DNA from: Deltaproteobacteria bacterium
Lineage (GTDB): Bacteria; Desulfobacterota; GWC2-55-46
DNA: 64,000 bases
Direction of reading: 5' to 3'
Assembly (NCBI GenBank): GCA_016177845.1
Contig: JACOUO010000011.1
Coordinates: forward strand, 50,161 to 114,160
Under the pieces are notes generated by a model, which saw nothing but the letters and a program-made list of their open reading frames with translations, was not told the DNA's origin and searched no databases. Each line of letters begins with the position of its first letter. The first letter of the stretch is position 1. A program made the translations under genes and the position numbers. This document shows, piece after piece, positions 2,133 to 59,221 of this stretch.

Positions 2133-3530
2133 ATGGCTAAGAACAAAATCTTAATAGTAGATGATGAAAGGGACATGAGGGACTTCCTGGCTATAATGCT
2201 CAGGAAGGAAGGCTATGAAGTCGAGACCCTGCCCTCAGCCAAATTGGCCCTTGATTACTGCAGGGAAAACCATATCGACCTTGTCATCTCGGATGTCAGG
2301 ATGCCCATAATGGGCGGGGTGGATTTCCTTAAGGCCGTAAAGGAGCTTGATAAGGATATCATTGTAATAATGATAACTGCTTATGCCTCTGTAGAGACAG
2401 CCATCGAGGCAATGAAGTCAGGCGCGTATGATTATTTTACCAAGCCTTTTAACATTGACGAAGTAAAGCTCAATATCAAAAAGGCGCTTAAGGCAAAAAG
2501 CCTTGAGAAAGAGAACGAGATACTCAGGAAAGACCTCAAGACAAAATTCGGGTTCAGCAATCTTATCGGCGCAAGCCAGAAGATGAAGGATGTCTACAGC
2601 CTCATAATGAGTGTTGCAGGCACAAAGACCAACATCTTCATAACCGGCGAAAGCGGCACAGGCAAGGAGCTGGTAGCAAGGGCGATACACTACGAGAGCG
2701 ACAGAAAAGATAAGCCCTTTATAGCTGTCAATTGCGGGGCGATACCGGATAATCTTATGGAGAGCGAGCTCTTCGGACATCAGAAAGGCGCGTTTACAGG
2801 AGCTGTATCGAATAAGGAAGGCCTTGCCGAACAGGCTGACGGGGGCACTCTGTTCCTGGATGAGCTTACTGAACTTCCTCTGCATCTTCAGGTAAAGCTT
2901 CTGAGGTTCATACAGGAGAGGAACTTCAGAAGGGTAGGCGGCACAGTCGATACAACGGTAGATGTACGGCTTATAGCTGCTTCCAACAGGGACCTTGAAG
3001 CAGAGGTAAAGGCTGGCAGGTTCAGGGAAGACCTTTTCTACAGGCTCAATGTCATAAGGATAAGCCTACCTCCTTTGAGGGAGCGCAGGGAAGACATAGC
3101 GATGCTTGCCAGGCACTTCATGGAAAAGTTCAGTGCGGAACTTGGCAAAGATGTAAGGAAAATATCAGAGACAGCAATGGGCCTGATAGTGAACCACGAG
3201 TTCTCGGGAAATGTCAGGGAGCTTGAAAATGTGATTGAGAGGGCGGTAACGCTTGAGCCGTCAGATACCATTACGCCTGAGAGCCTGCCTGATTATATCA
3301 GGGACAGGACGATGGCAACGGCATCGGTCAATGACGGCGAGACAGAGGCGCTAAAAGTGCCTGAGAGCGGAATGGACCTTGAAAAGACTGTTGAGGAATT
3401 TGAAAAGGCGATAATCATGGACGCCTTGAAAAAAACAAGAGGAGTAAAGAAAAGGGCTGCGGAGCTCCTTGGGCTTTCATTCAGGTCCATGAGATACAAA
3501 CTAAGCAAATATGACATCCCGGAAGACTGA
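2133..3530 (+). CDS. pilR: Sigma54-dependent response regulator PilR
   Basis: Receiver domain, GESGTGKE, ESELFGH, GAFTGA, C-terminal HTH with SFRSMRY; directly after pilS. Confidence 0.9.
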   Translation: MAKNKILIVDDERDMRDFLAIMLRKEGYEVETLPSAKLALDYCRENHIDLVISDVRMPIMGGVDFLKAVKELDKDIIVIMITAYASVETAIEAMKSGAYDYFTKPFNIDEVKLNIKKALKAKSLEKENEILRKDLKTKFGFSNLIGASQKMKDVYSLIMSVAGTKTNIFITGESGTGKELVARAIHYESDRKDKPFIAVNCGAIPDNLMESELFGHQKGAFTGAVSNKEGLAEQADGGTLFLDELTELPLHLQVKLLRFIQERNFRRVGGTVDTTVDVRLIAASNRDLEAEVKAGRFREDLFYRLNVIRISLPPLRERREDIAMLARHFMEKFSAELGKDVRKISETAMGLIVNHEFSGNVRELENVIERAVTLEPSDTITPESLPDYIRDRTMATASVNDGETEALKVPESGMDLEKTVEEFEKAIIMDALKKTRGVKKRAAELLGLSFRSMRYKLSKYDIPED

Positions 3531-5793
3531 ACAGTCCGTTAAAATAATATCTGCTGTATTACTCTTTGGGCTTGGGATATTCCTCCTCCTTTCAGCTTAT
3601 CAGAAACAGCAATGGGATTCTGACATATTCTGGGCGCTGAAAAGCGGTGAGTGGATATTCTCAAACCTTAAAGTCCCTGCCACAGACCCGTTCTCCTATA
3701 CATTCGGGGGAAAACCATGGGTTGATTTTACATGGGGTTTTCAGGTACTGGTCTATTCGTTCTTCAACTATCTCGGAGGCTGGAACGGCCTGTTCATATT
3801 TCAGGTAATACTGACCTCTCTGACCTTTCTTTTCATCTATCTCAACCTTAGGCTTTTGACCTCGAACAGGACTTGGCTCAATATTACCTTCCTGTTTCTT
3901 GTTTATGTCTGCGCACATTCAAGGCTTTTTATAAGGCCGCACCTCTTTGAATATTTCTTTGTTTCGCTCTATCTGCTCCTGCTGACTCTGTATGAGAAAA
4001 AAGGGAGTTCATTGTATTTATATTTGATGCTGCCTTTGCAGGTCTTATGGGTGAACATCCACTCAAGCGCAATACTCGGCATTTTTATAGCAGGCTCTTA
4101 TGCGGCGGGCAAGATAATCGATGAGCTTCGCAGCGACGGCTTTAAGATAAAGGGCTCATCAAGCATAAATGCCCTTATATTTATGCCTGCCCTTCTTCCG
4201 ATTGTATCTCTGATAAACCCATACGGGCTTAAGCTCGTTGTATTTCCTTTTATCCATCACGGCATTGATAATGCCGACGCGATAAAGCATATAGGGGAGT
4301 GGCTAAAGCCTAATCTCAAAGAGCTTTTCTTTTTCTTTTACCCTTTCCCGCTTGATCATTTCGCTTTCGTTCTGCTGTTTACGGCTGTTGTAATCTCCTT
4401 AGCCCTGAATTTCAGGAAATTAAAGGCAAGATACATTTTCCTGCTTGCGGCGGCCCTTTACATGGCTACCTCGCACACAAGATGGATTGCGTTATTTGCG
4501 TTTTTTGCCGCCCCGATAGCGGCAGCCAACATCTGCTCTTATCTGGAGAGTAAGGTTTGCAGTGAAAAATTCTTAAGCCGCTCAGCCCTTGCTCTTTCCG
4601 TTTTCATGGCTATTGTCATGGGGATAGTATTTTCAACAGGGCATCTCAGGGATAATTTCGGCATTGGCAAAAGGGAAGGGGTATTCCCCGAGGGAACTGT
4701 AGCCTTCATGAAAAAGGAAGGCATAAAGGGCAATATCTATAATGAGTATATATTTGGCGGCTATCTTATCCACGAATACCCTGAAGTGAAGGTGTTTATA
4801 GACGGAAGGACGCCTACGGTCTATTCCCCGTATTTCTTCTGGATGACGAGGCTTGCCGAGGACCCTGCTCATTGGAAGAAGATGGTAAAAGAATACGATA
4901 TAAAGATGGCGCTTATAAAAATCGACAGCAAATTTTGCGGTCAGCTCAGGAGCAGCAGGGAGTGGGCCCCGGTGAGCTTTGACGATGTGTCCATACTGTT
5001 TCTTAAAAATGCAGATGAATATAAGGATGTGATATCAAGGTGGGGCATGACCGAGCTTAACCCGTGCTCAGAAGGAGCGAGGTATAAGCTCCCGAATGAT
5101 CCTGTAGCCCTTGACACGATAAAAGGCGAGCTTGAGAGGGTAATCTCTTATAATGAGGGTTTTGCAAGGCCTCACAGGCTTCTTGGGCTCCTTTACACAG
5201 AACTCGGCGGAGAGAGCCTCGGTAAAGCCGTATCTGAATTCGAGAAGGCTCTTGCGATAGTTCAAAACCCGTTTATTTACTATGATTATGCTGTCGCGCT
5301 TGGGAAGATGACGCGACATAACGATGCCATAGCCGCATTTAAAAAGGCAATAGACGGAGATGAGGAGTTTAAGGACGCCTATCTTGGCCTCGGAGTTGCC
5401 TACCATGACCTGAAAGAAAATAAGGAAGCTGTAAAAGCGCTCTCAAAATACATTACCCTTGCTGATGACACCAGCGACCCTATTGCTTATAAGATACTCG
5501 GGTTATCTTATTTCGAACTTGGGGAATTTGAACCGGCTGCTATTTACCTGAAAAGGGCGGCTTTTGCCATCAATGACCCTAAGGAGCTTGGCAATATAAA
5601 TTACTATTTGGGCAATGCCTTATTCGAAGCCGGTGAGGATGAAGAAGGGCTTAAATATTACTCAAGGGCTATTGCCATAAACCCCGAATACAAAGATGTC
5701 CTGCAGAACCTCTCAGATAATCTCAGAAGATCAGGCAAAAGCGGCAGAGCGGATAAGATATCTTCCATAGTTTCTTCTGAAAAGGCCGAATAA
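3511..5793 (+). CDS. Polytopic membrane protein with C-terminal TPRs; putative GT-C-fold glycosyltransferase
   Basis: Acidic motif in first external loop (WDSDIFW..DPFSYT..PW), about 11-13 hydrophobic segments, soluble NEYIFGGYL..FIDGR domain, TPR-like repeats. Confidence 0.6.
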   Translation: MTSRKTEQSVKIISAVLLFGLGIFLLLSAYQKQQWDSDIFWALKSGEWIFSNLKVPATDPFSYTFGGKPWVDFTWGFQVLVYSFFNYLGGWNGLFIFQVILTSLTFLFIYLNLRLLTSNRTWLNITFLFLVYVCAHSRLFIRPHLFEYFFVSLYLLLLTLYEKKGSSLYLYLMLPLQVLWVNIHSSAILGIFIAGSYAAGKIIDELRSDGFKIKGSSSINALIFMPALLPIVSLINPYGLKLVVFPFIHHGIDNADAIKHIGEWLKPNLKELFFFFYPFPLDHFAFVLLFTAVVISLALNFRKLKARYIFLLAAALYMATSHTRWIALFAFFAAPIAAANICSYLESKVCSEKFLSRSALALSVFMAIVMGIVFSTGHLRDNFGIGKREGVFPEGTVAFMKKEGIKGNIYNEYIFGGYLIHEYPEVKVFIDGRTPTVYSPYFFWMTRLAEDPAHWKKMVKEYDIKMALIKIDSKFCGQLRSSREWAPVSFDDVSILFLKNADEYKDVISRWGMTELNPCSEGARYKLPNDPVALDTIKGELERVISYNEGFARPHRLLGLLYTELGGESLGKAVSEFEKALAIVQNPFIYYDYAVALGKMTRHNDAIAAFKKAIDGDEEFKDAYLGLGVAYHDLKENKEAVKALSKYITLADDTSDPIAYKILGLSYFELGEFEPAAIYLKRAAFAINDPKELGNINYYLGNALFEAGEDEEGLKYYSRAIAINPEYKDVLQNLSDNLRRSGKSGRADKISSIVSSEKAE

Positions 5794-5837
5794 AGCCTGT
5801 TCTTTCCATGAAAAAAATTCAAGGCGTCAGCGAAAAT

Positions 5838-5878
5838 TGACATAAAATGTCAGAATAGTGACAAAAAATGTCACTATT
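5838..5878. promoter_or_regulatory. Putative PilR enhancer: two TGACA-N5-TGTCA palindromes 21 bp apart
   Basis: TGACA-TAAAA-TGTCA (5838-5852) and AATAGTGACA-AAAAA-TGTCACTATT (5854-5878), about 90-130 bp upstream of the predicted sigma54 start. Confidence 0.65.
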
Positions 5879-5938
5879 AAAGTTTTTCAAAAGTACACAG
5901 GAAATCGTAAGTAGTTGTTTTGTAATAATTTCATGTTT

Positions 5939-5954
5939 TGGCATGGGCATTGCA
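5939..5954 (+). promoter_or_regulatory. Sigma54 (-24/-12) promoter of pilA
   Basis: TGGCATGGGCATTGCA, exact GG-N10-GC spacing; upstream of pilA and near pilR. Confidence 0.85.
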
Positions 5955-6044
5955 CATTAGTATATGCAAAACGATTTAAGTTTTTCGGTGCAAGTCCGAA
6001 GATTTAAATAAGTTCAAAATCAAAATGCCGGAAGGAGGAAAGAA

Positions 6045-6446
6045 ATGTTTCTACAGAGAATGCTGAAAAGGATTAAAAGAGAAGAAGGTTTTACACTGGT
6101 CGAGTTGCTGATAGTCGTTGCTATCATCGCAATACTCGCGGCAATCGCAATCCCGCAGTTCACAAAATACAGGCTGAGGGGCTACAAGACAGAGCTTGAC
6201 TCTGACGCAAAGAATGCGTACACAGCTGCTCAGGCTTATCTTACAGATAACCCGGCACAGACTGTTGACAGCATCGACAAGCTCAAAGCAGGCGGATACC
6301 AGAAGTCTACAAATGTGGCCTTTACAAACGGCTCAATGACACTTTCAGCCGGCAATATAGAGCTGGATACAACAGCCGGTGGCCTTACAGACAACAACTC
6401 AGTTGTATTCTTCAACGGCAGGATCGTTTTCGCGAACACACCCTGA
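6045..6446 (+). CDS. pilA: Type IVa major pilin
   Basis: Prepilin cleavage site EEG|FTLVE with E5, hydrophobic helix to P22, RBS AAGGAGG, own promoter and terminator. Confidence 0.93.
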   Translation: MFLQRMLKRIKREEGFTLVELLIVVAIIAILAAIAIPQFTKYRLRGYKTELDSDAKNAYTAAQAYLTDNPAQTVDSIDKLKAGGYQKSTNVAFTNGSMTLSAGNIELDTTAGGLTDNNSVVFFNGRIVFANTP

Positions 6447-6470
6447 TCCTGGCTTATAACAGCATGAATG

Positions 6471-6503
6471 AAAAGGAGGGGTTCTTACCCCTCCTTTTTT
6501 TTT
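6471..6503 (+). terminator. Rho-independent terminator after pilA
   Basis: AAAAGGAGGGGT-TCTT-ACCCCTCCTTTT followed by a T run. Confidence 0.85.
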
Positions 6504-6538
6504 ACTTTTTTGCATTTCTGTATTAATATGAAAATCTA

Positions 6539-8248
6539 ATGAAGAAAAGCCTCATCAATCTTTCATACCTGCTTTTAATCCCGCTTGGGCTTATTATCTA
6601 TGCAAAGGTATTAAACGGGCCTTTTGTCTTTGACGACCATGCCTATATTGCCCTCAATCCCTGGGTAAAGTCATTAAGCAATTTCATCGATGTAAAAGGT
6701 ATGCGGTATGCAGGGGATTTAAGTTTTGCGCTTACCTACAAATTTTGGGCGCTCGACCCTTTCGGCTATCACCTCATAAATGTATTAATCCACATTGTTA
6801 ATTCCATAATTGTATTTTTCCTGTGCGGGCTTATATTGAAAACTCCGCTTTTAAAGGCGAAGTTATCAGATGAGCGCAAGGTCCTCTGGTTTTCCTTCTG
6901 TGTCTCTTTGATTTTTCTCTGCCATCCCATACAGACTCAGGCAGTAGCCTACATAAGCCAGAGATATACCTCGTTGGCGACTCTTTTCTATTTGGCGTCC
7001 TGTTCTTCATACCTGAAGGCACGGCTTTTGAGGTCTGAGGACAAGAGGCATCTTCATTGGTATGTTACCGCTTTTATCTCCGCTATATTTGCAATGAAGA
7101 CAAAGGAGATAAGTTTCACCCTGCCTTTTGTGGTCATGATTCTGGAGTTCAGCCTTTTTTCCTCTGATATCAGCTTTGGAAAACGGATTAAGTTTCTCGC
7201 GCCTATTCTGCTTACGGCAATTATCATCCCCTTGAGTCTTATATTGCCTGATGTGGGCATAACAGAGGGCGGCAACAGGGCTGAAGAGCTTTTCAGGCTT
7301 CGTAAGTTAAATGAGGCCGCTTCGATTTCACGCTATCAATATCTTCTCACTGAAACGACTGTCATAATTACTTATCTTCGTCTCATGTTCCTGCCTGTGG
7401 GCCAGCATTTCAATTACTATTACCCTCTCGCAGAGTCGATATTTGAACCTGTAGTTTTACTATCATTCATCGTCCTGTCTCTTTTTTTTATCTCGGGCAT
7501 CTATCTGCTCTTTCGTTCTGAAAAAGGCTGGGGCAGGATTGCGGGCCTCGGCATGGTGTGGTTTTTCATAACCCTTTCAGTAGAATCTTCCGTAATCCCT
7601 ATAAGGGATGTGATAAATGAGCACAGGATGTATCTGCCTGCTTTCGGCCTCATTATCGCTTTCTTCTCAGGGGTATTTTACCTGTTGGAATCCGCAATAA
7701 AACGGGGGAGCAGATTGGATGCTGAAAAGGCAGTTGCGATCATGCTTATCATTATTGCGGTGCCTCTTTCATCAGCCTCGTACATGAGGAATACTGTTTG
7801 GGGCAATAAGTTCCTTTTATACGCCGATGAGGTTAAAAAAAATCCCTTATCGGTCAGCCCTCATATGAACATCGGCATAATTTATTATGAGCGCGGGCAA
7901 TATAACGAAGCCATCGGCCACTTCAAAGAGGCTGAGAGGATAAACCCTGCTTCTGTCTATGTGCACAGGACGCTTGGGAAATTTTATTTTCATATCGGCG
8001 ATATGGATAAGGCTATGGAAGAATACAGAAAGATAATCACTCTGGATCCTGACAGGGAGGAATATATCGAAGCGCGGTACAACCTTGGCGTGCTTTACAT
8101 GAAAAAAGGATTTTTTAATATGGCCGAGGAAGAATTCAGAAAGGTGCTTGAAAAAAATAATAATGACAAGCACGCAATAAAAGCGCTGGAGATGATATCA
8201 AAACAAAAAGCCAACAAAGCGCCATTCGCTGTCAAAGAGAGCAAATGA
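6539..8248 (+). CDS. TMTC-like (protein O-mannosyltransferase-related) GT-C membrane protein with TPRs
   Basis: FVFDD..I..NP, GYHLINVLIH, HPIQTQAVAYISQR, KTKE, EHRMYLP, RN.VW motifs, then TPRs, as in the TMTC family. Confidence 0.75.
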   Translation: MKKSLINLSYLLLIPLGLIIYAKVLNGPFVFDDHAYIALNPWVKSLSNFIDVKGMRYAGDLSFALTYKFWALDPFGYHLINVLIHIVNSIIVFFLCGLILKTPLLKAKLSDERKVLWFSFCVSLIFLCHPIQTQAVAYISQRYTSLATLFYLASCSSYLKARLLRSEDKRHLHWYVTAFISAIFAMKTKEISFTLPFVVMILEFSLFSSDISFGKRIKFLAPILLTAIIIPLSLILPDVGITEGGNRAEELFRLRKLNEAASISRYQYLLTETTVIITYLRLMFLPVGQHFNYYYPLAESIFEPVVLLSFIVLSLFFISGIYLLFRSEKGWGRIAGLGMVWFFITLSVESSVIPIRDVINEHRMYLPAFGLIIAFFSGVFYLLESAIKRGSRLDAEKAVAIMLIIIAVPLSSASYMRNTVWGNKFLLYADEVKKNPLSVSPHMNIGIIYYERGQYNEAIGHFKEAERINPASVYVHRTLGKFYFHIGDMDKAMEEYRKIITLDPDREEYIEARYNLGVLYMKKGFFNMAEEEFRKVLEKNNNDKHAIKALEMISKQKANKAPFAVKESK

Positions 8249-9918
8249 AAGGCTCTATGAACAGGAACCTTAATATAATTTGGATACTTGTCGTAGCCTT
8301 TACCGCTATCCTCGGGCTTGAGCTGATTGACAACAGGGTCTCAAGCATCAGGGGAGGGGACGCGATAAATTATATCCTTCTGGCGAAATCCATTGCTACG
8401 GGGCATGGCTTCGCTGATATCAATATACCGGGTTTTCCTCCTCACACCCAGTACCCTCCGATACTGCCGCTCATCCTAAGCCCTGTCTATTATCTGTACG
8501 GGTTTAATTTTGTTCTGATGAGGCTTGTAGTCGTGCTTTTCGCGATAGGCTCTGTCTGTCTGGTCAAACGCATATTCGAAAAGGAGTCTGACAAAGGCAT
8601 CGGGATTTTTCTTTCGCTGATAACAGGGACGAACTTCTACTTCCTGTTCTTCGCCAAGGAACTGATGACCGAAATCCCTTACATGTTCCTTTCGCTGCTC
8701 GCTATCTTCTGTCTTGACAGGTATTCATCGGAAAAAGCAGGCGGCAGATATCTGGTATTCGGCAGCATACTCCTGTCAATCGCTTACCTTACAAGGATGA
8801 TAGGCATTACGCTTTACGCGGCTGCGGCAATTTACATTATAATAGATACATTCAGAACAAGAGGAGACGGAAATAAGAAAAAGGGACTTTTCTTTTTATT
8901 GGCCGTTGGCGGTCTGCCGTTCCTGATATGGATGATAAGGGGAAGCTTATATTCCCATGATGTCTCTACTTATGAATCCATCTTCATGCAGGCTGATTAT
9001 TACGCGAATGATAGCGGTTCAGCCGGGCTTGGCTCACTCTTTGGCAGGGCATATGAGAATATCGGATACTACATCGATACTCTACCAAAGGGACTCATCA
9101 GCTTTATAGATATAAAACATTATCTCAATGCGCTCCCTCTTAAGATATTCTATCTGCTTGTTCTGTTCATTATGCTCTTAGGTTTCGCTATCGAGCTTTA
9201 CAGGAAAAGAGGGATAAAGGATTTCTATATCCTATTTTATTTCATACTGCTTGCCGTATGGCCTGTGTACGGCTCAGGCGACGCAAGGAGGTATATCGTT
9301 CCAATACTTCCTTTCCTGTATTTTTATTTTTTCAGAGGGTTTTGTGCGTTAGGAAGTCTAAAAAATGTCTTCAGAGAAAGCAGCAGGCTCACTCTTAACA
9401 AAGCAGCGGTTTTTCCTGTCATTTTATTCTTATCTTTCAATATTGCCGAAATATACAGGATGGTCTATCCGCCCGATGCCTTAAAAAGGATAAACTCAGC
9501 AGTAAAATATCTCGCAATATATTCAGGAGAGAGGGTTGATAACATTGAGCTTGATACTGTCTCTGAACATTTCAAAATGAATTCACCATGCTACAGTAAA
9601 TACCTTGAGACAGCTTTTGGGGCTAAATCCATCTTAGGCGCTCAGGATGTTGTCATGACAAGAAAGCCTGAGGTGGTCTACCTTATTACAGGCGGGTATT
9701 CCGTTAGATTTCCATATACGAAAGATGACGGCAGGATGAAGGAGTTTATCAAGGGCAGGGATGTTGACTTCGTGCTTGTTGACCAATGCTATCCTGAGGC
9801 GACCGCTTATCTGGTCCCTTTTATCTCATCAAATCCGGGTATGTTCGACACTGTCTTTGATGATGCAAAAGGGACCGTTCTTTTAAAGGTGAAAAAAGCT
9901 TCGGTTAAGCCGGAGTAA
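8245..9918 (+). CDS. PMT/ArnT-like (GT39/GT83-related) membrane glycosyltransferase
   Basis: GGDAINY..LAKSI..G.GF..YPP motif after the first TM, LMTEIPY, TRMIG, RRY..P; multiple TMs; ATGA overlap with the previous gene. Confidence 0.65.
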   Translation: MKGSMNRNLNIIWILVVAFTAILGLELIDNRVSSIRGGDAINYILLAKSIATGHGFADINIPGFPPHTQYPPILPLILSPVYYLYGFNFVLMRLVVVLFAIGSVCLVKRIFEKESDKGIGIFLSLITGTNFYFLFFAKELMTEIPYMFLSLLAIFCLDRYSSEKAGGRYLVFGSILLSIAYLTRMIGITLYAAAAIYIIIDTFRTRGDGNKKKGLFFLLAVGGLPFLIWMIRGSLYSHDVSTYESIFMQADYYANDSGSAGLGSLFGRAYENIGYYIDTLPKGLISFIDIKHYLNALPLKIFYLLVLFIMLLGFAIELYRKRGIKDFYILFYFILLAVWPVYGSGDARRYIVPILPFLYFYFFRGFCALGSLKNVFRESSRLTLNKAAVFPVILFLSFNIAEIYRMVYPPDALKRINSAVKYLAIYSGERVDNIELDTVSEHFKMNSPCYSKYLETAFGAKSILGAQDVVMTRKPEVVYLITGGYSVRFPYTKDDGRMKEFIKGRDVDFVLVDQCYPEATAYLVPFISSNPGMFDTVFDDAKGTVLLKVKKASVKPE

Positions 9919-10774
9919 CTTCTTTTATATCCACCGAAGTATGCCCGTACTGCTGGAAGCGGTTTGTCTTTACCTTTACATCGCATGGGTTGCAGTGGCC
10001 GAATACTTCGCAGACCCTGTAGATATCCTCAAGTTCAAAATTCGGGTCGATAAGATTGCCTACAGGCGTCCTGCCTTCGTATAGGTCGCTGTGGCATCTG
10101 TAAATGCTGCCGTCACTGCCTGCGATAAGCTCGGTGGTTTTGCAAAGCACTTTTTTCTCGAACTTCCTGTCGCATGAGCCTTCGTATTTGAAAGTGCCGT
10201 AAAGTTTGCCATCGTATTCACCGAGGAATTCCTTGAACCTGAAATCAATCCCGCGGCCCTGGCAGTATTCCTGCGCCTTGCGGATGACATCTTCCTGAGA
10301 CGGGTGGAGCACTCCCCAAATACCTATGCTGAAGCCGGCGTCCTGCATCCTTAAGACCTTCTCGACCAAAGGCAGCAGTTCCATCTGTTCAGGATGGTAG
10401 CTGACCCTGATGGAAGCGTAAGGGGCATTTCTTTTTATCCTGTTCGGGTCGACCTTGGCTATGAACTCGTTTATGTCGAACTGAAGGTTCGTCAGTATGT
10501 CTATATTAAGCTCAGGCTTAATGTTATTTAGGATATATATGAAGTCCTTATGCAGGCTCGGCTCGCCGCCCTGAAGCGTTATGGGAAGGTCGTATCTCGA
10601 TTTTATCCTGTTGATGCCTTGCACCCATTCTTCGCCTGAAAGCCGTTTATTCACAAACCCGTCTTTGCCGAAGTGGTTGATGCAGTAGCTGCACTTCAGG
10701 TTGCAGGCAAGCGTGAGGAATGTAGCGATGTAGTTATAATGTTCGGGAATTATAATGGGTTTAAGCTCTTTCAT
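9905..10774 (-). CDS. Radical SAM protein with C-terminal Cys-rich (SPASM/twitch-like) region
   Basis: CNLKCSYC, GGEP, and C-terminal CKTT..YRCH..CEVFGHCNPCD. Confidence 0.85.
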   Translation of the reverse strand: MKELKPIIIPEHYNYIATFLTLACNLKCSYCINHFGKDGFVNKRLSGEEWVQGINRIKSRYDLPITLQGGEPSLHKDFIYILNNIKPELNIDILTNLQFDINEFIAKVDPNRIKRNAPYASIRVSYHPEQMELLPLVEKVLRMQDAGFSIGIWGVLHPSQEDVIRKAQEYCQGRGIDFRFKEFLGEYDGKLYGTFKYEGSCDRKFEKKVLCKTTELIAGSDGSIYRCHSDLYEGRTPVGNLIDPNFELEDIYRVCEVFGHCNPCDVKVKTNRFQQYGHTSVDIKEVTPA

Positions 10775-10775
10775 C

Positions 10776-11708
10776 TTATTTCTCCGAAATCAGTTTTTCG
10801 ATATTTTCAAGGACCGTTGCAGGCTCTATCTCATAAAGGCATGTCCTGTCCTTAATGCAGACCGTGTTCATGCAGGGCAGGCAGTCGAATTCCTTTTCAG
10901 GCAGAAGCTTAACGCCGTGCTTTACATATACTTCGTTGGCAAGGGTGGGGCCGAAGATGGCGACTATCTTTTTATCAAGGGCGTGTGCGATATGGAGACC
11001 AAGGCTGTCATTTGTGACAATAAGCCTGCAGGAGTTTATCCATTCAATATATTCCTCAATGGATTTCAGGCCCTGCTGCCATGAGATGGTATATTTATCA
11101 CCGATCAGTTTTTCAAGCTCTTTCCAGTATTCAAGCGGCCATGCCTTTATAGGCCATTTGTCGCCGACATTGAAGTTGAAACCGATGTCGTACACTTCCT
11201 CTGAGGTCGGTTTATAACCGATTGTGGGTATCTCACCCTGCCATTGGCTTCCGACCATCTCAAAGAGAAAATCTTCCCAGTACTTTTTATTTGAGAGCTT
11301 ATCTTTCTGGTTGTTGCAAAGCTCAAGAACGGTCTGTGTGCCGTCATATGCGTTTGCCGTGCCTGTCTCAGGGTCGAACCTGAACCCGAAGCGCCTCCAG
11401 GCGGTAAGCGAGTCTGAGAACGCGCAAATGCCCGCCACCTTCTCAAGGTTGACGATGGTATCGAACCTCTCTGCCTTAAGCTGCAATACTGTGGTAAGGT
11501 CGTACGGCATTATCCTGTGGATGTAAGGGTTGCCTTTAAGAAGAGCTATTGCCTTTTCATCTACGAGCCATGTTACATGGGCGTCTTTAAACAGGTGAAG
11601 GAGAACAGTGCTTCTTAATACATCGCCAAGGCTTGTCTTTCTGCTTATCTCGCCAACAAGGGTTTCTGAATAGCCAAGTTTTATAATAAGTATTTTTTCT
11701 TTCTGCAT
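10776..11708 (-). CDS. Glycosyltransferase family 9 (heptosyltransferase-like)
   Basis: KILIIKL..SLGDVL, VTWLV, KAWP, NDSLGLHIA.AL..IFGPT, C-terminal CLPC..C..C. Confidence 0.82.
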   Translation of the reverse strand: MQKEKILIIKLGYSETLVGEISRKTSLGDVLRSTVLLHLFKDAHVTWLVDEKAIALLKGNPYIHRIMPYDLTTVLQLKAERFDTIVNLEKVAGICAFSDSLTAWRRFGFRFDPETGTANAYDGTQTVLELCNNQKDKLSNKKYWEDFLFEMVGSQWQGEIPTIGYKPTSEEVYDIGFNFNVGDKWPIKAWPLEYWKELEKLIGDKYTISWQQGLKSIEEYIEWINSCRLIVTNDSLGLHIAHALDKKIVAIFGPTLANEVYVKHGVKLLPEKEFDCLPCMNTVCIKDRTCLYEIEPATVLENIEKLISEK

Positions 11709-12196
11709 CAGCTTTCCCTCACAATCCGAACTGCTTCATTATATATTTCAACAGGGCGGTAGCCCATGTTCTCAAGGCGGCGCTTTCTTAGAAAATACTC
11801 GGTAAACGAATAAGCCCTTACGAAGAAAATGCCTTTCATCTGTAGAAATACCATGTCAAGGGCCACATGGAATATCAGCCCGAGGCAAAGCGCGGTAAGT
11901 AAAGACGACCCTATAGCGTATGAAAAGATGTAAAGAGGCACTATAAATTCTATCGTGTGGAATATCTCGATATTTAAAAACTCCGGTGAATACCATACGC
12001 GCTCAAGCGCCTTATGGTACGCGAACATGCCTTTGATACTCAGGTCGGTAAAGCCGTTATGGTAAATGTAGTCAAGGTAATGGTCGATATCAATGGCAAA
12101 TGAGGCGCCCCAGAAGAACAGGCTCTCAACACCCATTATAGGGTACATGGCTATTGATGCCGCAGTGCCTAATATAAGGTGGTCTTTGGGCGTCAT
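11708..12196 (-). CDS. Small membrane protein, putative metal-dependent hydrolase (YdjM-like)
   Basis: Start reassigned to MTPKDH, 2 nt after the upstream stop; H..IDIDH..FHTIE..FH..LD pattern with TM segments. Confidence 0.55.
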   Translation of the reverse strand: MTPKDHLILGTAASIAMYPIMGVESLFFWGASFAIDIDHYLDYIYHNGFTDLSIKGMFAYHKALERVWYSPEFLNIEIFHTIEFIVPLYIFSYAIGSSLLTALCLGLIFHVALDMVFLQMKGIFFVRAYSFTEYFLRKRRLENMGYRPVEIYNEAVRIVRES

Positions 12197-12198
12197 TT

Positions 12199-13683
12199 TC
12201 AGATCTTTCTTACCTGAGAAGTGTTCATGACCTCTTCCGAATGCTTGAAATGTTCCAGTACAAAGCTTTCGTAGATGCCCCTTATCGTATTTACAACAGA
12301 GAACTTCATGGGGTATATCCGCGTCTTTACAAGATAAGCCTTTGTAAAATAATACATCATAAAATATGTTCTGGTAAAAGGCAGTTTTATAAGCCTGTTT
12401 ACTACTAAATTCCTGAGCGAAGGCTTCCAAAGGCATAGGGTCGAGAGCAATGACAGATTCCTCTGCAGGAGCTTTTCCTTATCACTGAAGCATTTAAGGG
12501 GCGAGGTCGATTGATAGCTCATGTGGAGGCTGTCGTAATTCCCGTTGAAGTCCCCCCTCTTTATGGCGTACTTCGCAAGCTCGGTCTCAGGGTAGGGGAA
12601 GAAGATAGGAAATTCCCCGAATGTCACCTTGCACCTCAGGTTGGTATCAAGCGATTCAATATCCTCTTGTATCGAAGTGCCCGGAATCGCGAAGATGGTA
12701 TTTGAGAATGTGGGTATATTGTGCTTGCTGCAAAGGTCAAACGCCTCAACCATCACTTCTTTGCTCATGTTGCGCTTAAGTATTTCGTTCCTTACCTTGT
12801 CATTGCCGCTCTCAATGGACATGCTCAGAGAGGCAAGCCCGGCCTTCTTAAGCTTAAGCAGTATCGGCTCAGTAAGTAAATTGGCCCGCATCAGGCAGTG
12901 AAACGGCACTCCTATCTCTTTGGGATATCTTACCGAGAACTCCTCGAGCCACTCGTCATCCTTCATAACGAATATATCGTCATAGAATTTTATAAATTGA
13001 GTCTCCCAGTTCTTTTTAAGGTGTTTAAGTTCAGCTATGACCCTGTCAACGCTCATCCTTGAGACAAGAGAGCCTTTGCCCTTATATAACAAATTGTATT
13101 TGTGATTAAAACAGTAAGTGCATTTGTAAGGGCAGCCCCTGCCGACCATGAAGCTCCTCATGGGGAAACGGCCAAGGCGCGTGGTTGAATAGAAGAGTTC
13201 CCTGTCAAGAAAGGGAAGGTCGTCAAGCTCCCTTCTCCTCTGGCGGATAACCGGCGGTTTGCTTTTATCGAAATTGTTTTTTGTGATTATGTTAGGGATA
13301 TTGTCGAACGGAAGCTTTTTATCAAAGGCGTCAAGGAGCTCAGGCCAGGCGTCATCACCTTCACCGACGCAGAGAGCGTCAAAAGAATGCTTTTCAATTA
13401 TCTCAGGAAAAAATGTCGCGTGCGGCCCGCCTATGACGGACAATACATTGCTGTTGATTGATTTTATGAGATCGTTAGCCGCGAGATAGTATTTATGTTC
13501 GCCTGTCTTTGCGCTGTAAGCTACGATATCGGGCTTGAATTCCTTTACCCTGCCTTCAAGGTTGCCGTCTGCAAGTACGGCGATGCCTGTAGAGTGTCCT
13601 TTTTCTTTGGCAAGGGCGGACAGGAGCATAATCCCCATCGGGTCGATATATTCGATATCTTTGATTACAAACAGAATCTTCAA
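12199..13683 (-). CDS. Cobalamin-binding radical SAM protein (class B methyltransferase-like)
   Basis: N-terminal B12-binding domain (PMGIM.LSA, GGPHAT, GEGD), GRGCPYKCTYC, FYDDIF, SIESG. Confidence 0.88.
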   Translation of the reverse strand: MKILFVIKDIEYIDPMGIMLLSALAKEKGHSTGIAVLADGNLEGRVKEFKPDIVAYSAKTGEHKYYLAANDLIKSINSNVLSVIGGPHATFFPEIIEKHSFDALCVGEGDDAWPELLDAFDKKLPFDNIPNIITKNNFDKSKPPVIRQRRRELDDLPFLDRELFYSTTRLGRFPMRSFMVGRGCPYKCTYCFNHKYNLLYKGKGSLVSRMSVDRVIAELKHLKKNWETQFIKFYDDIFVMKDDEWLEEFSVRYPKEIGVPFHCLMRANLLTEPILLKLKKAGLASLSMSIESGNDKVRNEILKRNMSKEVMVEAFDLCSKHNIPTFSNTIFAIPGTSIQEDIESLDTNLRCKVTFGEFPIFFPYPETELAKYAIKRGDFNGNYDSLHMSYQSTSPLKCFSDKEKLLQRNLSLLSTLCLWKPSLRNLVVNRLIKLPFTRTYFMMYYFTKAYLVKTRIYPMKFSVVNTIRGIYESFVLEHFKHSEEVMNTSQVRKI

Positions 13684-14439
13684 CTAAGCACCTTCAATAA
13701 TCCGTCTTGCGGGGGAGTTGTACTTTGCCCTCTCCTTTATGCGAACCTCCCAGAATAGCGTTCCTATTGCTTTGAATACGCTCACAATGTTTTTCAGAGC
13801 GAAAGCCTTTGTCTTTCCCGTCTCCCTCGGCTTTATATCTATGCCGACTTCTATGTAGCTCGCCCCTGAGCGTATCAGCCGTACAAGTATCGCCGCCATG
13901 TAGGCAAAGCCCCATGTTTTAAGAGGGACTTTTTTAAGGAGCTTGCTTTTGATGACGCATGTTCCGTTGTAATAGATGAGATTCAGCCCGAAAAGCGTAT
14001 TCATGCCTACTACGAAGAGTTTCGAGATGAGTCTTCGTGAAAGCGCCCTTACATGGGTATTGGCTGTGTAAGGTATTATCACATCTGCTTTACCGACACG
14101 GCTGAAGGCCTTTTTGATGGCCTCGGGAGGTATCTCATTATCACCGGGCACCATTATTATGTAATCCTTCTTTGCGAGCCTCACGCCCTCTGTATAGTTG
14201 TACCCGAACCCCATGTTTTTGGGGTTGTGTATCACTCTGATGTTTTTTTCTTTCTTCTTTATCTCTTCGGCGATTTTGCCGGTATTGTCAGTGCTGAAGT
14301 CATTGAATATAAGTATTTCGTAATCGCTGAACCTTGAAGATGAGAGGGCCTCTTCAATGGATTCGATAGTGCCTTTGAGGTTGCCCTCTTCGTTAAGGCA
14401 CGGGACTATTATTGAGATGCTTGGGTTAGTTTTTGCCAT
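13684..14439 (-). CDS. Glycosyltransferase family 2 (polyprenol-phosphate glycosyltransferase / DPM-synthase-like)
   Basis: IIVPCLNEE, NDFSTDNT, HNPKNMGFG, VPGDNE; start reassigned to MAKTNP, adjacent to the E1-beta stop. Confidence 0.82.
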   Translation of the reverse strand: MAKTNPSISIIVPCLNEEGNLKGTIESIEEALSSSRFSDYEILIFNDFSTDNTGKIAEEIKKKEKNIRVIHNPKNMGFGYNYTEGVRLAKKDYIIMVPGDNEIPPEAIKKAFSRVGKADVIIPYTANTHVRALSRRLISKLFVVGMNTLFGLNLIYYNGTCVIKSKLLKKVPLKTWGFAYMAAILVRLIRSGASYIEVGIDIKPRETGKTKAFALKNIVSVFKAIGTLFWEVRIKERAKYNSPARRIIEGA

Positions 14440-14440
14440 A

Positions 14441-15481
14441 TTATTTCTGAATGGTTTTTTTAACGGCTGATATAATATGGTCAACGCCTGGGTAGTATGC
14501 TTTTTCAAGCGCCGGGCTTGCCGGGGTAGGGGTCTCCGGCAGGTTTACCCTTACTACTGGGGCCTTCAAAATGCCGCAGGACTCTTCCATTATTCTGGCT
14601 ACTATCTCAGCTCCTACAGAGCATTCTTTCCAGCCGGTGTCAGCTATAACGAGCCTGCCTGTCTTTTTGACGGATTCTATTATCAAGCCCATATCAAGGG
14701 GCTTTACAGTCCTCGGGTCGATTACTTCTGTCTCAATCCCTTCTTTAGACAATGCCTCTGCGGCCCGCATTGCCTCATACGCCATGTACGAGATGCCGAC
14801 CACTGTGGCGTCTTTGCCCTCTCTTCTTACAATTCCTTTGCCGATGGGTACGGTGTAGTCATCTTCAGGCACATGGCCCATGTGGTCATAAAGCCAGCGG
14901 TGCTCTATGATGATAACCGGGTTGCCGTCATAGACGGCAGCCCTAAGAAGCCCCTTGGCGTCATAGGGTGTGGCGGGCATCAATACCCTAAGCCCCGGAA
15001 TGTTTGTGAAGAGAGATGGAAGGCTTTGTGAATGTTGTGCGGCAGAGCCCCAGCCTCGTCCGATTATCGCCCTTACTACAAGCGGGACGCTCAGCTTTCC
15101 GCCGAACATATAATGCCATTTTGCGGCATGGTTTATAATCTGGTCGAGAGTAAGTGGAAGAAAGTCCACTCTCATGTGCACGAGAATGGGCCTCATGCCG
15201 GAGATTGCGGCGCCTATGGCAATGCCTGTGATGCCGTTCTCCGCAAGGGGAGAGTCCATTACCCGGTCCTTGCCGAATTTCAGATGAAGATTTTTTGTGG
15301 TGCCGAATACGCCCCCGGCATCGTCCACGCCCTCGCCGATGACAAAGACGGATTTGTCCTGTTCAAGCATGCGGGAGGTTGCCTCAAGTATCGCTTCCTT
15401 GTAGGTGATGCCCCGGAGCGTGCTTCCTGCGGCAGCCTTCTCAAATTCTTCCTTATTGCTGTAAATCTTTGTCCACGGCAT
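14441..15481 (-). CDS. TPP-dependent 2-oxoacid/acetoin dehydrogenase E1 beta-like subunit
   Basis: GEGVDD.GGVFG, DSPLAE, AAQHSQ, TPYDAKGLL, IDPRT.KPLD. Confidence 0.9.
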   Translation of the reverse strand: MPWTKIYSNKEEFEKAAAGSTLRGITYKEAILEATSRMLEQDKSVFVIGEGVDDAGGVFGTTKNLHLKFGKDRVMDSPLAENGITGIAIGAAISGMRPILVHMRVDFLPLTLDQIINHAAKWHYMFGGKLSVPLVVRAIIGRGWGSAAQHSQSLPSLFTNIPGLRVLMPATPYDAKGLLRAAVYDGNPVIIIEHRWLYDHMGHVPEDDYTVPIGKGIVRREGKDATVVGISYMAYEAMRAAEALSKEGIETEVIDPRTVKPLDMGLIIESVKKTGRLVIADTGWKECSVGAEIVARIMEESCGILKAPVVRVNLPETPTPASPALEKAYYPGVDHIISAVKKTIQK

Positions 15482-15486
15482 CTTTT

Positions 15487-16497
15487 TTAGTCTCTTGTCC
15501 CGAAATAAACATCTTTATGCAGCTCTGAAGCTTCAGGGTAGGGGCTTTCCTTGGCGAACCTTACCGCTTCATCAAGCTCTTCCCTGATCCCGGCTGAGAT
15601 GCTCTCAATTTCATTTTCAGTAATTATCTGCCTTGAAACTATGAATTCCCTGAATATGGAGACAGGGCATTTTTCTTTCCAGTAAAGAAGCTCTTCTTTT
15701 GGCCTGCAGCCTTTTTCAAAATCCTCTTCAGGCCCGACATGGCCCTTCCATCTGTATGTTTTTGCCTCTATCAGGCTTGGGCCTGCGCCCCTCCGTGCCC
15801 TTGAAATGGCCTCCTGCGCGGCTTTGTAAACCGAAAGGACATCATTGCCGTCTACGCAAGTGCCATGAGAGTCGAACGGGGCAGCGGTGCTTGATATTTT
15901 ACAGCTTGCCTGCCTTGCTGATTGGTGGGAATTCGTTGCGTAGAAGTTGTTTTCGCAAACGAAGACTACGGGCAGTTTTTTCAAAGCGGCAAAATTGAAC
16001 GATTCGTAGAAAACGCCTTCCTCTGAAGCTCCGTCGCCGAAGAATATCACCGTAACCCGTTCCTCGCCTTTCATTACAGAGGCGAGCGAAGCGCCGACTC
16101 CCATAGGTATGCCGCCGCCGACAATTGCGGATGTGCCGAGTATTCCGTTCTCAATGTCCAAAATATGCATTGAGCCGCCCTTGCCCTTGCTGCACCCGGT
16201 TATCTTGCCGTAGAATTCCGCCATAAGCGGCTTCATGGCAGTGCCTTTGGCAAGCGTGTGGCCGTGCCCCCTGTGGTTTGAGAATACATAATCTTCTTTC
16301 CTCAGGTTAAGGCAAACCCCGGCTGCAATGGCCTCCTGCCCGATGCAGAGGTGGACAGGGCATTTCATCTCCTGCTCAGGGTAGAGCTCAATGATCTTAT
16401 CCTCGAACATGCGGATCCTGAGCATTGAGGCGAAGAGGTCAATGAGAAGCGTTTTTGTAAGGGTGCTGAGCCCGTATTTTAAAAGGTCTTCTTTCAT
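15487..16497 (-). CDS. TPP-dependent dehydrogenase E1 alpha-like subunit
   Basis: HLCIGQEA, HRGHGH, GKGGSMH, TPP motif GDGA..ENN, YRWKGH. Confidence 0.9.
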   Translation of the reverse strand: MKEDLLKYGLSTLTKTLLIDLFASMLRIRMFEDKIIELYPEQEMKCPVHLCIGQEAIAAGVCLNLRKEDYVFSNHRGHGHTLAKGTAMKPLMAEFYGKITGCSKGKGGSMHILDIENGILGTSAIVGGGIPMGVGASLASVMKGEERVTVIFFGDGASEEGVFYESFNFAALKKLPVVFVCENNFYATNSHQSARQASCKISSTAAPFDSHGTCVDGNDVLSVYKAAQEAISRARRGAGPSLIEAKTYRWKGHVGPEEDFEKGCRPKEELLYWKEKCPVSIFREFIVSRQIITENEIESISAGIREELDEAVRFAKESPYPEASELHKDVYFGTRD

Positions 16498-16498
16498 C

Positions 16499-17563
16499 TT
16501 AGATAAAATTCACATGGAGAGAAGGGTGCTTAAGCTCCCAAAGATATCTGTTTATCTCATCCATCCTGCAGTTTACCCTGCATTCGGTGGTATCAAGGCC
16601 TTTGGCAACAAACTCCATGACCTTTTTCCTTTTCTCTCCGTTCCAGATTTCCTCAAAAGTATTTTCGTTGATATTGCCGAAAAGGAACCTTTCGTCGCCA
16701 AGATAGGCGCTGCAGCCCCAAACGCCACCGCCTGAGTCGATATAAGACCAGAAGGGCAGGGCAAGGCACTTTTCATAGCTTCTTTTTTCCTGAAGCTTTT
16801 TCATGGCGTTTTTCCTGAAGATAACTTTAAAGTCCTTGTCTGATATCTTCTGAAGCTGGTCGCTTAGGTGCATGTACTGGTTATAATCGAAGTCCTTATA
16901 CTGGGTCGTAAGGCTCTTTAAGTGCTGTGAATAGGATTTTATGACAAGATAATCCGCACCTGCTTCTTTGGCCTTTTGCGCCAGAAGCACGGCCTCAGAG
17001 GTGTTCTCGGGCAGCAGTATCATCTGCATGCCTATGGTTGAGGAAAGGTTTGCCTGTTTTCTGAATTTAACAGCAGTGCGGATATTGTCGAGTACCTTGT
17101 CAAAATCAGCCTCGGATGTTCTGTGTATTTTGGCATAGGTCTCTTTGGTGCCCGCGTTAAAGCTTATTTTTATCCATGTGATGGAGGCAAGGCAGGATTC
17201 GATGAGCTTTTCCGTGAACAGTACACCGTTGGAGGTGATTGCCACATCGATGCCGGATTTTTTGGTATGGTTTATTATCTCGCCTGAGTGCTTGTGGAGA
17301 AAGGGCTCGCCTTCTCCTGCGTACATGATGCTCTTTATCCCAAGCCTGCCAAGCTCTGAGAGCCTTTCCTTGAGCATTACGGGGTCAAGCTGTCTGGGCT
17401 GGTACTCCATGTAGTCAAGCGCGCAATAGGTACACCTGTGATTGCATGCCCCTATGGGGGAGACTTCCATGTATACCGGGTAAATGTTATCCCCCTCCAG
17501 CCATTTGTTTACACGGGGAACATGGTACATCAGCTTATGGCTGTCAATCCTGAATTCGTCCAT
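16499..17563 (-). CDS. Radical SAM protein with SPASM/twitch-like domain
   Basis: CNHRCTYC, GEGEP, and C-terminal CLALPF..WGC..FGNI..CRVNC. Confidence 0.87.
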   Translation of the reverse strand: MDEFRIDSHKLMYHVPRVNKWLEGDNIYPVYMEVSPIGACNHRCTYCALDYMEYQPRQLDPVMLKERLSELGRLGIKSIMYAGEGEPFLHKHSGEIINHTKKSGIDVAITSNGVLFTEKLIESCLASITWIKISFNAGTKETYAKIHRTSEADFDKVLDNIRTAVKFRKQANLSSTIGMQMILLPENTSEAVLLAQKAKEAGADYLVIKSYSQHLKSLTTQYKDFDYNQYMHLSDQLQKISDKDFKVIFRKNAMKKLQEKRSYEKCLALPFWSYIDSGGGVWGCSAYLGDERFLFGNINENTFEEIWNGEKRKKVMEFVAKGLDTTECRVNCRMDEINRYLWELKHPSLHVNFI

Positions 17564-53600: not shown

Positions 53601-53685
53601 TAAGTCCTCCCGTGCGGGTGATTTTATATAAAAAAGCGCAAATCCAATTCTGGATTTGCGCTCAGAAAATAACCTGTTGTTGCGG

Positions 53686-57862: not shown

Positions 57863-57885
57863 AAGGTTTTTTTTCTTTCTTTTGG

Positions 57886-59208: not shown

Positions 59209-59221
59209 ATCCTGTACCCCC

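Follow-up and report, generated by a model that had tools for sequence, protein, structure and literature searches.

The stretch of DNA analyzed here (the window) is 64,000 nucleotides (nt) long and comes from contig JACOUO010000011.1 of a Deltaproteobacteria bacterium assembly (GCA_016177845.1). Near its start, a type IV pilin locus on the plus strand, in which pilA stands among genes for three membrane proteins of the glycosyltransferase (GT) class GT-C, meets a tightly packed minus-strand operon of eight genes that encode radical S-adenosylmethionine (SAM) enzymes, glycosyltransferases and an E1 pair of the thiamine diphosphate (ThDP)-dependent, pyruvate dehydrogenase (PDH) type. We regard it as plausible, though somewhat short of probable, that these are two linked modules: a pilin locus with its own GT-C enzymes, and a convergent operon that tailors a sugar.

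Genes of the pilin locus and its GT-C membrane proteins

The open reading frame (ORF) list and family scans placed every gene named in the original prediction where it had been drawn. The plus strand begins with pilS (466-2124), a sensor kinase gene with 6TM_PilS, HisKA and HATPase_c Pfam domains, and pilR (2133-3530), which encodes a sigma-54 activator (Response_reg, Sigma54_activat and HTH_8). The start of the next gene overlaps the end of pilR by 20 nt; its product (3511-5793) is a 760-aa GT-C-fold membrane protein with C-terminal tetratricopeptide repeats (TPR). There follow pilA (6045-6446), encoding a 133-aa type IV major pilin recognized by NCBIfam and by the N_methyl Pfam family (E = 9.8e-9), and a gene for a 569-aa GT-C-fold membrane protein with an FVFDD motif and a C-terminal TPR region (6539-8248). 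The series is closed by the gene for a 557-aa PMT_2-type GT-C protein (ArnT/PMT-like; PF13231) that has no TPR (8245-9918).

This last gene is convergent with, and overlaps by 14 nt (9905-9918), the last gene of the minus-strand operon. The first operon gene (16499-17563) encodes a 354-aa, twitch-like radical SAM/SPASM protein with Radical_SAM and SPASM domains. It is followed by the genes for E1 alpha (15487-16497; E1_dh, with a GDG...NN ThDP motif) and E1 beta (14441-15481), both of the ThDP-dependent PDH-E1 type, with Transket_pyr and Transketolase_C listed for the pair. Next come a GT2 glycosyltransferase resembling dolichyl-phosphate mannose synthase (DPM1), GtrB and ArnC (13684-14508; PF00535), with PGDNE in place of DxD, a 494-aa radical SAM protein with a B12-binding domain (12199-13683), a 162-aa small membrane protein (11708-12196, in an ORF that extends to 12436), a 310-aa divergent GT9-family, heptosyltransferase-like glycosyltransferase (10776-11708; PF01075) and a 289-aa radical SAM protein, rSAM289 (9905-10774), which has Radical_SAM and Fer4_12 matches, a CNLKCSYC motif and a Cys-rich C terminus. 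CxxxCxxC is visible in the sequences of all three radical SAM proteins. Intergenic gaps are 1, -1, 2, 0, 5 and 1 nt when the small membrane protein starts at its conserved internal ATG; by hand arithmetic from the translation, the gap between the GT2 and E1 beta genes is 1 nt with the likely ATG start of the GT2 gene (13684-14439), and a TTG start would instead give a 68-nt overlap with the E1 beta ORF. With these two starts, the gaps of 5 nt or less that had been described for the operon stand. On the far side of the operon, a Cu-ATPase gene (17904-20738) comes first and then housekeeping genes.

Mature PilA has 118 aa and no cysteine, and pilA orthologues are present in relatives. The pilin had been described as Ser/Thr rich, and the enrichment proved mild: serine and threonine make up 16% of mature PilA and 20% of its globular part, against 11.6% in the long ORFs of the genome. 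A sigma-54-type -24/-12 element (TGGCAT-N5-TTGCA; 5939-5954, plus strand), found by motif search, lies 91 nt upstream of the pilA start and has one mismatch to the consensus. Sites of this kind are not in excess across the window, and the case for the element is its position. Between pilA and the 569-aa protein gene lies a terminator-like hairpin with a 13-bp stem and a T tail (6470-6499, plus strand). The 569-aa protein gene starts 92 nt after the pilA stop, and the same order is found in other loci, including L004 and L106.

The N-terminal domains of both TPR proteins (residues 1-540 of the 760-aa protein) matched no Pfam or NCBIfam family, and we therefore turned to structure models. These domains were modeled with AlphaFold2, using 35 relatives for the 760-aa protein and 21 relatives from the loci for the 569-aa protein, and the models were searched by Foldseek against the PDB. 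The model of the 760-aa domain (predicted local distance difference test score [pLDDT] of 87.3, predicted template modeling score [pTM] of 0.88) matched STT3 best (8age; E = 8e-8, TMq 0.61), with TMq values of up to 0.62 overall and 26 PDB matches at E ≤ 0.001. Further matches included DPY19, AglB, PglB, AftA and ArnT; the named top structural matches are GT-C enzymes, and Atlas structure leads for the same protein agree with a GT-C fold. The 569-aa domain (pLDDT 89.3, pTM 0.91) gave weaker matches than the 760-aa protein, the best being AglB (7e9s; E = 2.5e-4), followed by PglB, ArnT, STT3 and Pmt4 with TMq of 0.44 to 0.53 and four matches at E ≤ 0.001. Acidic residues of the first loop are conserved in both modeled proteins: in the WDSD motif of the 760-aa protein, D36 and D38 are invariant in 36 sequences, and in FVFDD of the 569-aa protein D32 is invariant and D33 is present in at least 90% of 22 sequences. 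TPR Pfam matches cover residues 577 to 749 of the 760-aa protein and are also found at the C terminus of the 569-aa protein. The 557-aa protein scored 40.4 bits with PMT_2 (PF13231; cutoff, 26.1).

All three membrane proteins are thus predicted to be of the GT-C class, two from modeled folds of the STT3/AglB type and the third from its Pfam family, and the label GT-C-like given to them earlier holds up under structure modeling. No Wzy_C domain was detected in the three whole proteins at E values up to 0.01 or in the two N-terminal domains at E values up to 5, in agreement with the earlier statement that no pilin oligosaccharyltransferase of the PglL/TfpO type is recognizable here. In searches that each scored 8,000 candidates, at least 937 relatives of the 760-aa protein and at least 2,860 relatives of the 569-aa protein were found at E < 1e-5, which defines two large unnamed GT-C families. 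The best 120 relatives of the 569-aa protein carry the names "TPR repeat protein" or "hypothetical" and none is called TfpW. The genome from which the window comes holds five further copies of the 569-aa type.

Farther along the window, the minus-strand stretches 51288-55506 and 56516-62730 encode two large proteins that have only TPR (770 and 606 aa) and, after them, a pair of sigma-54 activator paralogues that are PilR-like as well as a 7TM-GAF histidine kinase, with no link to the locus described here seen.

Operon enzymes and the operon core across phyla

The radical SAM/SPASM protein scored 78.4 bits for Radical_SAM and 37.3 bits for SPASM. Its best relatives in the PDB, BlsE (1e-6), BtrN (1.7e-5) and DesII (2.2e-5), all act on sugars, as had been expected of a twitch radical SAM enzyme in this setting.

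The E1 pair might be an ordinary pyruvate or acetoin dehydrogenase E1 that merely lies in the operon. E1 beta passes the PDH subfamily cutoff of NCBIfam (337.6 versus 321 bits), the ThDP motif is intact, and the genome does have one E2. However, E1 beta fails the equivalog model (337.4 versus 454), E1 alpha falls below its own equivalog cutoff (334.4 versus 393.85), and no E2 or E3 gene lies near the pair. We reject an ordinary PDH because the single E2 is encoded elsewhere, on contig C5, directly beside a different E1 pair. Moreover, radical SAM and GT2 genes adjoin the operon's pair at distances of 1 to 5 nt, and this order is kept across phyla. Taken together, these observations make an ordinary dehydrogenase extremely improbable. 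A second E1 pair without an E2, 38 to 39% identical to that of the operon, is encoded elsewhere in the same genome (C16:170003-183012) beside genes for a DegT-type aminotransferase, a GT2 and an epimerase. In all, sugar clusters of this genome contain two orphan E1 pairs, and C5 carries one canonical E1-E2 set.

The GT2 scored 96.8 bits for PF00535 and passes no NCBIfam equivalog. Pyrococcus DPM synthase is its best PDB match (5mlz; E = 1.6e-11, residues 28 to 259), followed by GtrB (5ekp) and ArnC (9hwj), so that its description as a DPM-synthase-like enzyme stands as to kinship, though not as to the DxD motif, which is absent. A motif of the type PGD(N/G)E is found in 41 of the 53 members of the GT2 cluster, from 40 loci in several phyla, and 33 of these genes directly follow E1 beta.

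The B12-domain radical SAM protein, with a CPYKCTYC motif, matches PF02310 (48.9 bits; cutoff, 32.1) and PF04055 (71.8 bits). The best match in the PDB is the sugar diol dehydratase AprD4 (6fd2; E = 1.2e-11), ahead of the methylase TokK (7e-8). The original prediction assigned C-methylation to a class B radical SAM enzyme; both domains are indeed there, but the closer kinship to AprD4 means that methylation is not the sole reading. All NCBIfam models score far below cutoff for this protein. Among them are a "lipid biosynthesis B12-binding/radical SAM protein" (88.5 bits) and HpnJ (67 bits), and the GT2 weakly matches HpnB, which raises the alternative of a pathway like those for hopanoids (HpnH/I/J) or ladderanes, with a lipid, instead of a free or carrier-bound sugar, as the substrate of the GT2 and the three radical SAM enzymes. 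The respective cutoffs are 360, 577.6 and 379, squalene-hopene cyclase and other lipid genes are missing from the conserved neighbors, and the neighbors in other phyla are sugar-nucleotide and GT-C genes. We rejected a lipid pathway of this type on these scores and on the distance of lipid genes, and consider it very unlikely.

The GT9 protein matches PF01075 above cutoff (40.3 versus 22 bits), but the alignment covers only residues 216 to 258. Models for heptosyltransferases I, II and III gave 30 to 47.5 bits against cutoffs of 134 to 185, and the PDB matches 3tov and 1psw are weak. Searches with rSAM289 found no informative relative and no NCBIfam family above cutoff; its gene travels with that for GT9 in distant phyla. 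The internal ATG start of the small membrane protein is common to 10 relatives. The membrane hydrolase label given to it previously goes back to a weak likeness to YdjM (Pfam E = 0.08; Atlas structure TM of 0.57 to YdjM clusters). In six Omnitrophota-type loci (L040, L049, L051, L056, L063 and L070, at ~13.9 to 15.0 kb), two adjacent small membrane proteins of ~160 to 180 aa that belong to no Pfam family lie between the second SPASM gene and rSAM289, the place of the YdjM-like protein in the window; these proteins might be flippase candidates.

All eight operon genes recur at 60 to 84% identity in uncultured relatives among "Deltaproteobacteria"/Thermodesulfobacteriota. To look farther afield, E1 alpha was searched against one genome per species, and the ORFs of the loci of the best 80 of at least 568 relatives were clustered together with those of the window (81 sources). 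A core of SPASM-E1 alpha-E1 beta-GT2-SPASM genes recurs in Omnitrophota, Nitrospirota, Planctomycetota, Geobacteraceae and others, often accompanied in distant phyla by GT9 and rSAM289. The most frequent neighbors of the E1 pair are a SPASM radical SAM (52/81), a B12-type radical SAM (46/81) and a GT2 (44/81). These are followed by an epimerase/dehydratase (28/81), GT9 (26/81), a DegT aminotransferase and a divergent HldE-like kinase/adenylyltransferase (25/81 each), rSAM289 (24/81), a GT-C of the 569-aa type (16/81), a GmhA-like isomerase (14/81), a GSU2086-family protein (10/81) and DUF2079 (6/81), with PMT_2 and a YfhO-like GT-C at 5/81 each.

We compared the 48 distant loci that span at least 12 kb; these are related to varying degrees, and the counts are not of independent events. 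Of the 24 loci that have the SPASM and GT2 core, 13 include a recognized GT-C gene (PMT_2, DUF2079, YfhO-like or TPR-GT-C); of the 24 that have only the E1 pair, 1 does. These E1-only loci resemble ordinary nucleoside diphosphate (NDP)-sugar clusters, 19 of the 24 having epimerase, DegT or nucleotidyltransferase genes. The placement of the E1 pair in a sugar context, advanced previously, is backed both by the lack of an adjacent E2 and by such pairs in sugar clusters of other phyla. Within the core loci, heptose-type genes (HldE-, GmhA- or GSU2086-like) occur in 13 of the 15 without GT9/rSAM289 and in none of the 9 with them. Heptose genes had been expected beside GT9, an expectation that we abandoned since the two sets are mutually exclusive there. 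The two sets have the look of feeder modules that stand in for each other and share a heptose theme, and heptose-type precursors, which the neighbors in other phyla point to, had not been considered before. At one locus (L052), GT9 and rSAM289 were seen by tblastn and not by the clustering. Genes for GSU2086-family proteins (NCBIfam, 381 bits) lie with GmhA-like genes at L042:7842-8801 and in the window's own genome at C20:81434-82873, and these proteins may be an unrecognized heptose-pathway enzyme.

Relation of the operon to the pilin locus

To relate the two modules, we surveyed 96 genomes of the class with the GT9 gene as the operon marker and an orthologue threshold of E < 1e-100. The marker was found in 49 of the 96 genomes: in 25 of 36 in family f1, to which the window's genome belongs (that genome not counted), in 14 of 15 in f4, and in none of the 17 in f3 or the 10 in f14. 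An orthologue of the 760-aa GT-C protein is encoded in 42 genomes, 31 with the operon and 11 without it (9 of them in f3), and 36 genomes have neither. Where both are present, they lie 3.3 to 8.4 kb apart on the same contig in 16 of 31 genomes; in the remainder they are on different contigs, with GT9 often near a contig end. In many drafts the contig ends within 1 to 2 kb of the GT9/rSAM289 end of the operon, where pilA would follow (for example, G062:C58:972, G069:C112:861, G074:C162:801, G067:C15:929 and G042:C132:794). Such breaks may stem from variation among strains at the pilin locus.

Orthologues of the PMT_2 protein are encoded in 15 of 49 genomes with the operon and 0 of 47 without it. 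Where contigs allow, they sit beside rSAM289, where the operon meets the pil locus, or in the pil locus itself. In genome G078 (C105:193-5221), three tandem PMT_2 GT-C paralogues, 35 to 41% identical to the window's protein, adjoin the operon. Neighbors were examined at 18 nonredundant operon loci with at least 3 kb of sequence beyond the last radical SAM gene: a pilin gene lies within 7 kb in 12 of them, and in 2 more GT-C genes are reached before the sequence ends.

The GT-C genes are also kept at pilA where the operon is missing. The order pilS-pilR-760-aa protein gene-pilA was found in all seven f3 loci that were fetched (L086 to L092), each without the operon. In L092, pilA and the Cu-ATPase gene are 3 kb apart, which makes the operon an insertion or a deletion between these two genes. 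In genome G006, all six genes of the window's pil locus stand together on one contig, PMT_2 orthologue included, and in G013, which has no operon, a PMT_2-like gene (32% identity) follows pilA. The GT-C genes are part of the pilin locus, and they are linked to pilA independently of the operon. The operon is a separate, mobile-looking cassette, whose core is tied across phyla to GT-C enzymes and to a GT2 of the polyprenyl-phosphate type.

The same data bear on a broader role for these proteins. The TPR-containing GT-C proteins and the operon could form a general system for periplasmic protein O-glycosylation or exopolysaccharide synthesis, with PilA at most one target. The many paralogues, both within this genome and among the relatives counted above, fit such a system, as does the company that TPR-GT-C proteins keep with the operon core in phyla without a nearby pilin gene. 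However, the 760-aa type is fixed between pilR and pilA in the f3 loci, and of the 31 genomes that have both it and the operon, 16 have the two within 8.5 kb of each other. This placement is specific to the locus, as it is for tfpW of Pseudomonas aeruginosa. We consider a general system unlikely.

Several observations weigh against a single pathway that joins the operon to the pilin. The operon is found in 18 genomes without a 760-aa orthologue, and f3 has that orthologue in 9 of 17 genomes (10 of 17 at 1e-30) but the operon in none. The operon of G006 is on another contig than its pil locus, with a 10-kb flank of unrelated, non-pil genes, and 4 of the 18 operon loci have housekeeping neighbors with neither a pilin nor a GT-C gene. 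On the other flank of the operon, the Cu-ATPase gene, which is unrelated, is kept about as often as the pilin gene is: it was found in 8 of 14 nonredundant loci with any upstream flank and in all but one of the 5 with more than 8.7 kb. All loci with a pilin gene beside the operon come from one class, in which f1 to f8 are families of a single order, and the adjacency may be inherited gene order. Pilin-like ORFs lie within 20 kb of 4 of 60 distant loci, which is roughly the chance level given 12 to 34 N_methyl matches per ~2-Mb genome (five genomes); for this reason, pilins near distant core loci were rejected as independent support. Nor is there a sign of shared regulation, since no sigma-54-like site (two mismatches or fewer) precedes the operon and a strong terminator divides pilA from the GT-C genes downstream. 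The GmhA- and HldE-like genes of the window's own genome lie on other contigs. On the side of the enzymes, none of the three radical SAM proteins passes an NCBIfam cutoff, the GT2 lacks a canonical DxD and has PGDNE where cluster relatives have DADLE or DGDGQ, the GT9 match is confined to ~43 C-terminal residues, and no flippase was recognized.

The main rival takes up a good part of this evidence. It holds that the operon modifies the inner core or lipid A of lipopolysaccharide (LPS), or another envelope glycolipid unrelated to the pilin, and that its place beside pilA is inherited; GT9 would act like a core heptosyltransferase and the PMT_2 protein like the lipid A modifier ArnT. The GT9 family is that of the LPS heptosyltransferases, PMT_2 proteins include ArnT, which is also among the structural matches reported above, and heptose-nucleotide-type genes occur at distant loci. 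The operon loci with neither pil nor GT-C neighbors, the equally persistent Cu-ATPase gene and the chance-level pilins at distant loci are likewise as this alternative would have them. It fits less well with a GT9 that falls far below every heptosyltransferase equivalog cutoff and aligns C-terminally only, and with the PMT_2 orthologue of G006, which remains with pilA where the operon lies elsewhere. No 3-deoxy-D-manno-octulosonic acid (Kdo), lipid A or O-antigen gene was seen among the conserved neighbors. On balance, we regard a role in LPS or another envelope glycolipid as possible but doubtful.

In the gene-neighborhood comparison that the original prediction had called for, the operon core keeps company with GT-C genes, and pilins near distant loci are at roughly the level of chance. 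What points to the pilin as acceptor is its position, which is partly uncoupled from the operon, as f3, G006 and the 4 of 18 loci illustrate.

Proposed pathway and comparison with known systems

We return to the reading in which a sugar-tailoring operon feeds GT-C enzymes. The operon's product is most likely a modified, lipid-linked sugar, and we think it somewhat probable that this sugar is made for a GT-C enzyme. The individual chemical steps and the acceptor, which we infer from the kinships described above and from gene position, would be as follows. GT9 and rSAM289 would form a feeder module, probably starting from an ADP-heptose-type precursor and replaced elsewhere by HldE/GmhA-like genes. 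The twitch/SPASM radical SAM enzyme would oxidize a sugar hydroxyl to a ketone or aldehyde, and the E2-less E1 alpha/beta pair would decarboxylate pyruvate and add the two-carbon unit to the sugar carbonyl. The B12-domain radical SAM enzyme might contribute a deoxygenation, as AprD4 does, or a C-methylation. The atypical DPM1-like GT2 would then load the sugar on polyprenyl phosphate, and a GT-C enzyme would use the lipid-linked product. The likeliest transferase for it is the PMT_2 protein encoded at 8245-9918. The GT-C/TPR enzymes, for their part, would most likely work at the outer face of the inner membrane, where they would take sugars off polyprenyl-phosphate carriers and attach them to PilA or another protein exposed to the periplasm.

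For the GT-C genes at pilA, pilin glycosylation is our best guess, since they are kept with pilA without the operon and since TfpW provides a precedent; we hold the chances that they glycosylate the pilin to be evenly balanced. The pilin is also a plausible acceptor of the operon's own sugar, an idea suggested by genomic position, yet that this sugar ends up on PilA seems to us rather doubtful. More doubtful still is the full sequence of events in which radical SAM oxidation and the E1 pair yield a two-carbon-branched or chain-extended, heptose-related polyprenyl-phosphate sugar that TfpW-like GT-C/TPR enzymes and the PMT_2 enzyme move to the pilin.

If the cassette works as proposed, two-carbon sugar branching by ThDP enzymes would reach beyond actinomycete antibiotics, to the envelope or pilus glycans of widespread anaerobes, and it would be coupled to radical SAM oxidation where a 4,6-dehydratase is usual. 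Should the full sequence of events hold, it would be the first E1-type sugar branching with radical SAM chemistry in a cell-surface glycoconjugate, and no GT-C pilin glycosylation would have been described earlier in an organism other than Pseudomonas. Many uncultured anaerobic phyla have the cassette, its PGDxE-type GT2 subfamily is a clean target for enzymology, and one of the two GT-C families defined here is fixed between pilR and pilA. Through this locus, pilin glycosylation also becomes open to test in a lineage with kinship to metal-reducing and syntrophic "Deltaproteobacteria," in which the surface chemistry of pilins matters for adhesion and phage defense; for the latter, see bioRxiv 10.1101/150227.

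Our literature search, which did not extend to subscription journals or supplementary files, found neither the cassette described nor any report, for organisms other than Pseudomonas, of GT-C/TPR genes at pilA. The original prediction had presented the system as a candidate for an undescribed one, yet the transferases have a precedent: a known type of pilin glycosyltransferase, TfpW, had been overlooked and is present here by architecture. According to its description (bioRxiv 10.1101/2020.04.19.049825), TfpW is the pilin arabinosyltransferase of P. aeruginosa Pa5196/PA7, a 646-aa GT-C protein that spans the membrane with 11 helices and has a DDx motif, an Emb-like proline-rich motif and a TPR domain in the periplasm. 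It is encoded immediately downstream of pilA, pilins are no longer glycosylated when it is lost, and it takes its sugar from a polyprenyl-phosphate donor whose biosynthesis genes form a separate cluster. Measured against that description, the 569-aa protein is TfpW-like by architecture and position, being a GT-C protein by its model, with an acidic DDx-type motif, a C-terminal TPR and a gene directly after pilA. The 760-aa protein shares this build, but its gene lies upstream of pilA. Three GT-C genes surround pilA here where the same account gives one, and the candidate sugar route relies on radical SAM and ThDP-E1 enzymes and is quite unlike the one to D-arabinofuranose. The host, too, is different, an uncultured member of Thermodesulfobacteriota/"Deltaproteobacteria."

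For the E1 pair, the closest parallels are in antibiotic biosynthesis. Two routes to two-carbon sugar branches have been described, one of which employs PDH-like E1 pairs (PMC4425429). These pairs, AviB1/AviB2 of avilamycin and Pau11/Pau12 of paulomycin, act in actinomycete antibiotic pathways on NDP-sugars or attached hexoses (PMC4425429; PMC4753412). By analogy of gene content, the operon would resemble them in having a PDH-like E1 pair without E2 or E3 within a putative sugar pathway. Unlike theirs, this pair is fixed between radical SAM/SPASM and GT2 genes in an envelope-type cassette of anaerobes, and the keto group is proposed to come from radical SAM oxidation and not from a 4,6-dehydratase. 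BtrN, BlsE and DesII for the radical SAM/SPASM enzyme, and AprD4 for the B12-domain enzyme, are the best solved relatives; with best E values of 1e-6 to 1e-11 and no family model passed, the reaction types that they suggest are leads only.

In the three-component systems GtrA/B/C and ArnC/E-F/T, a DPM1-like GT2 loads polyprenyl phosphate and a GT-C enzyme acts in the periplasm. The locus described here has the same pairing of a DPM1-like GT2 with a GT-C transferase. It differs in that no flippase is recognizable, in that PGDNE stands for DxD, and in that the operon holds four extra tailoring enzymes and a GT9. Set beside these relatives, the system would be one of polyprenyl-phosphate/GT-C glycosylation of the TfpW/Arn/Gtr type, equipped with a putative and undescribed sugar-tailoring chemistry.

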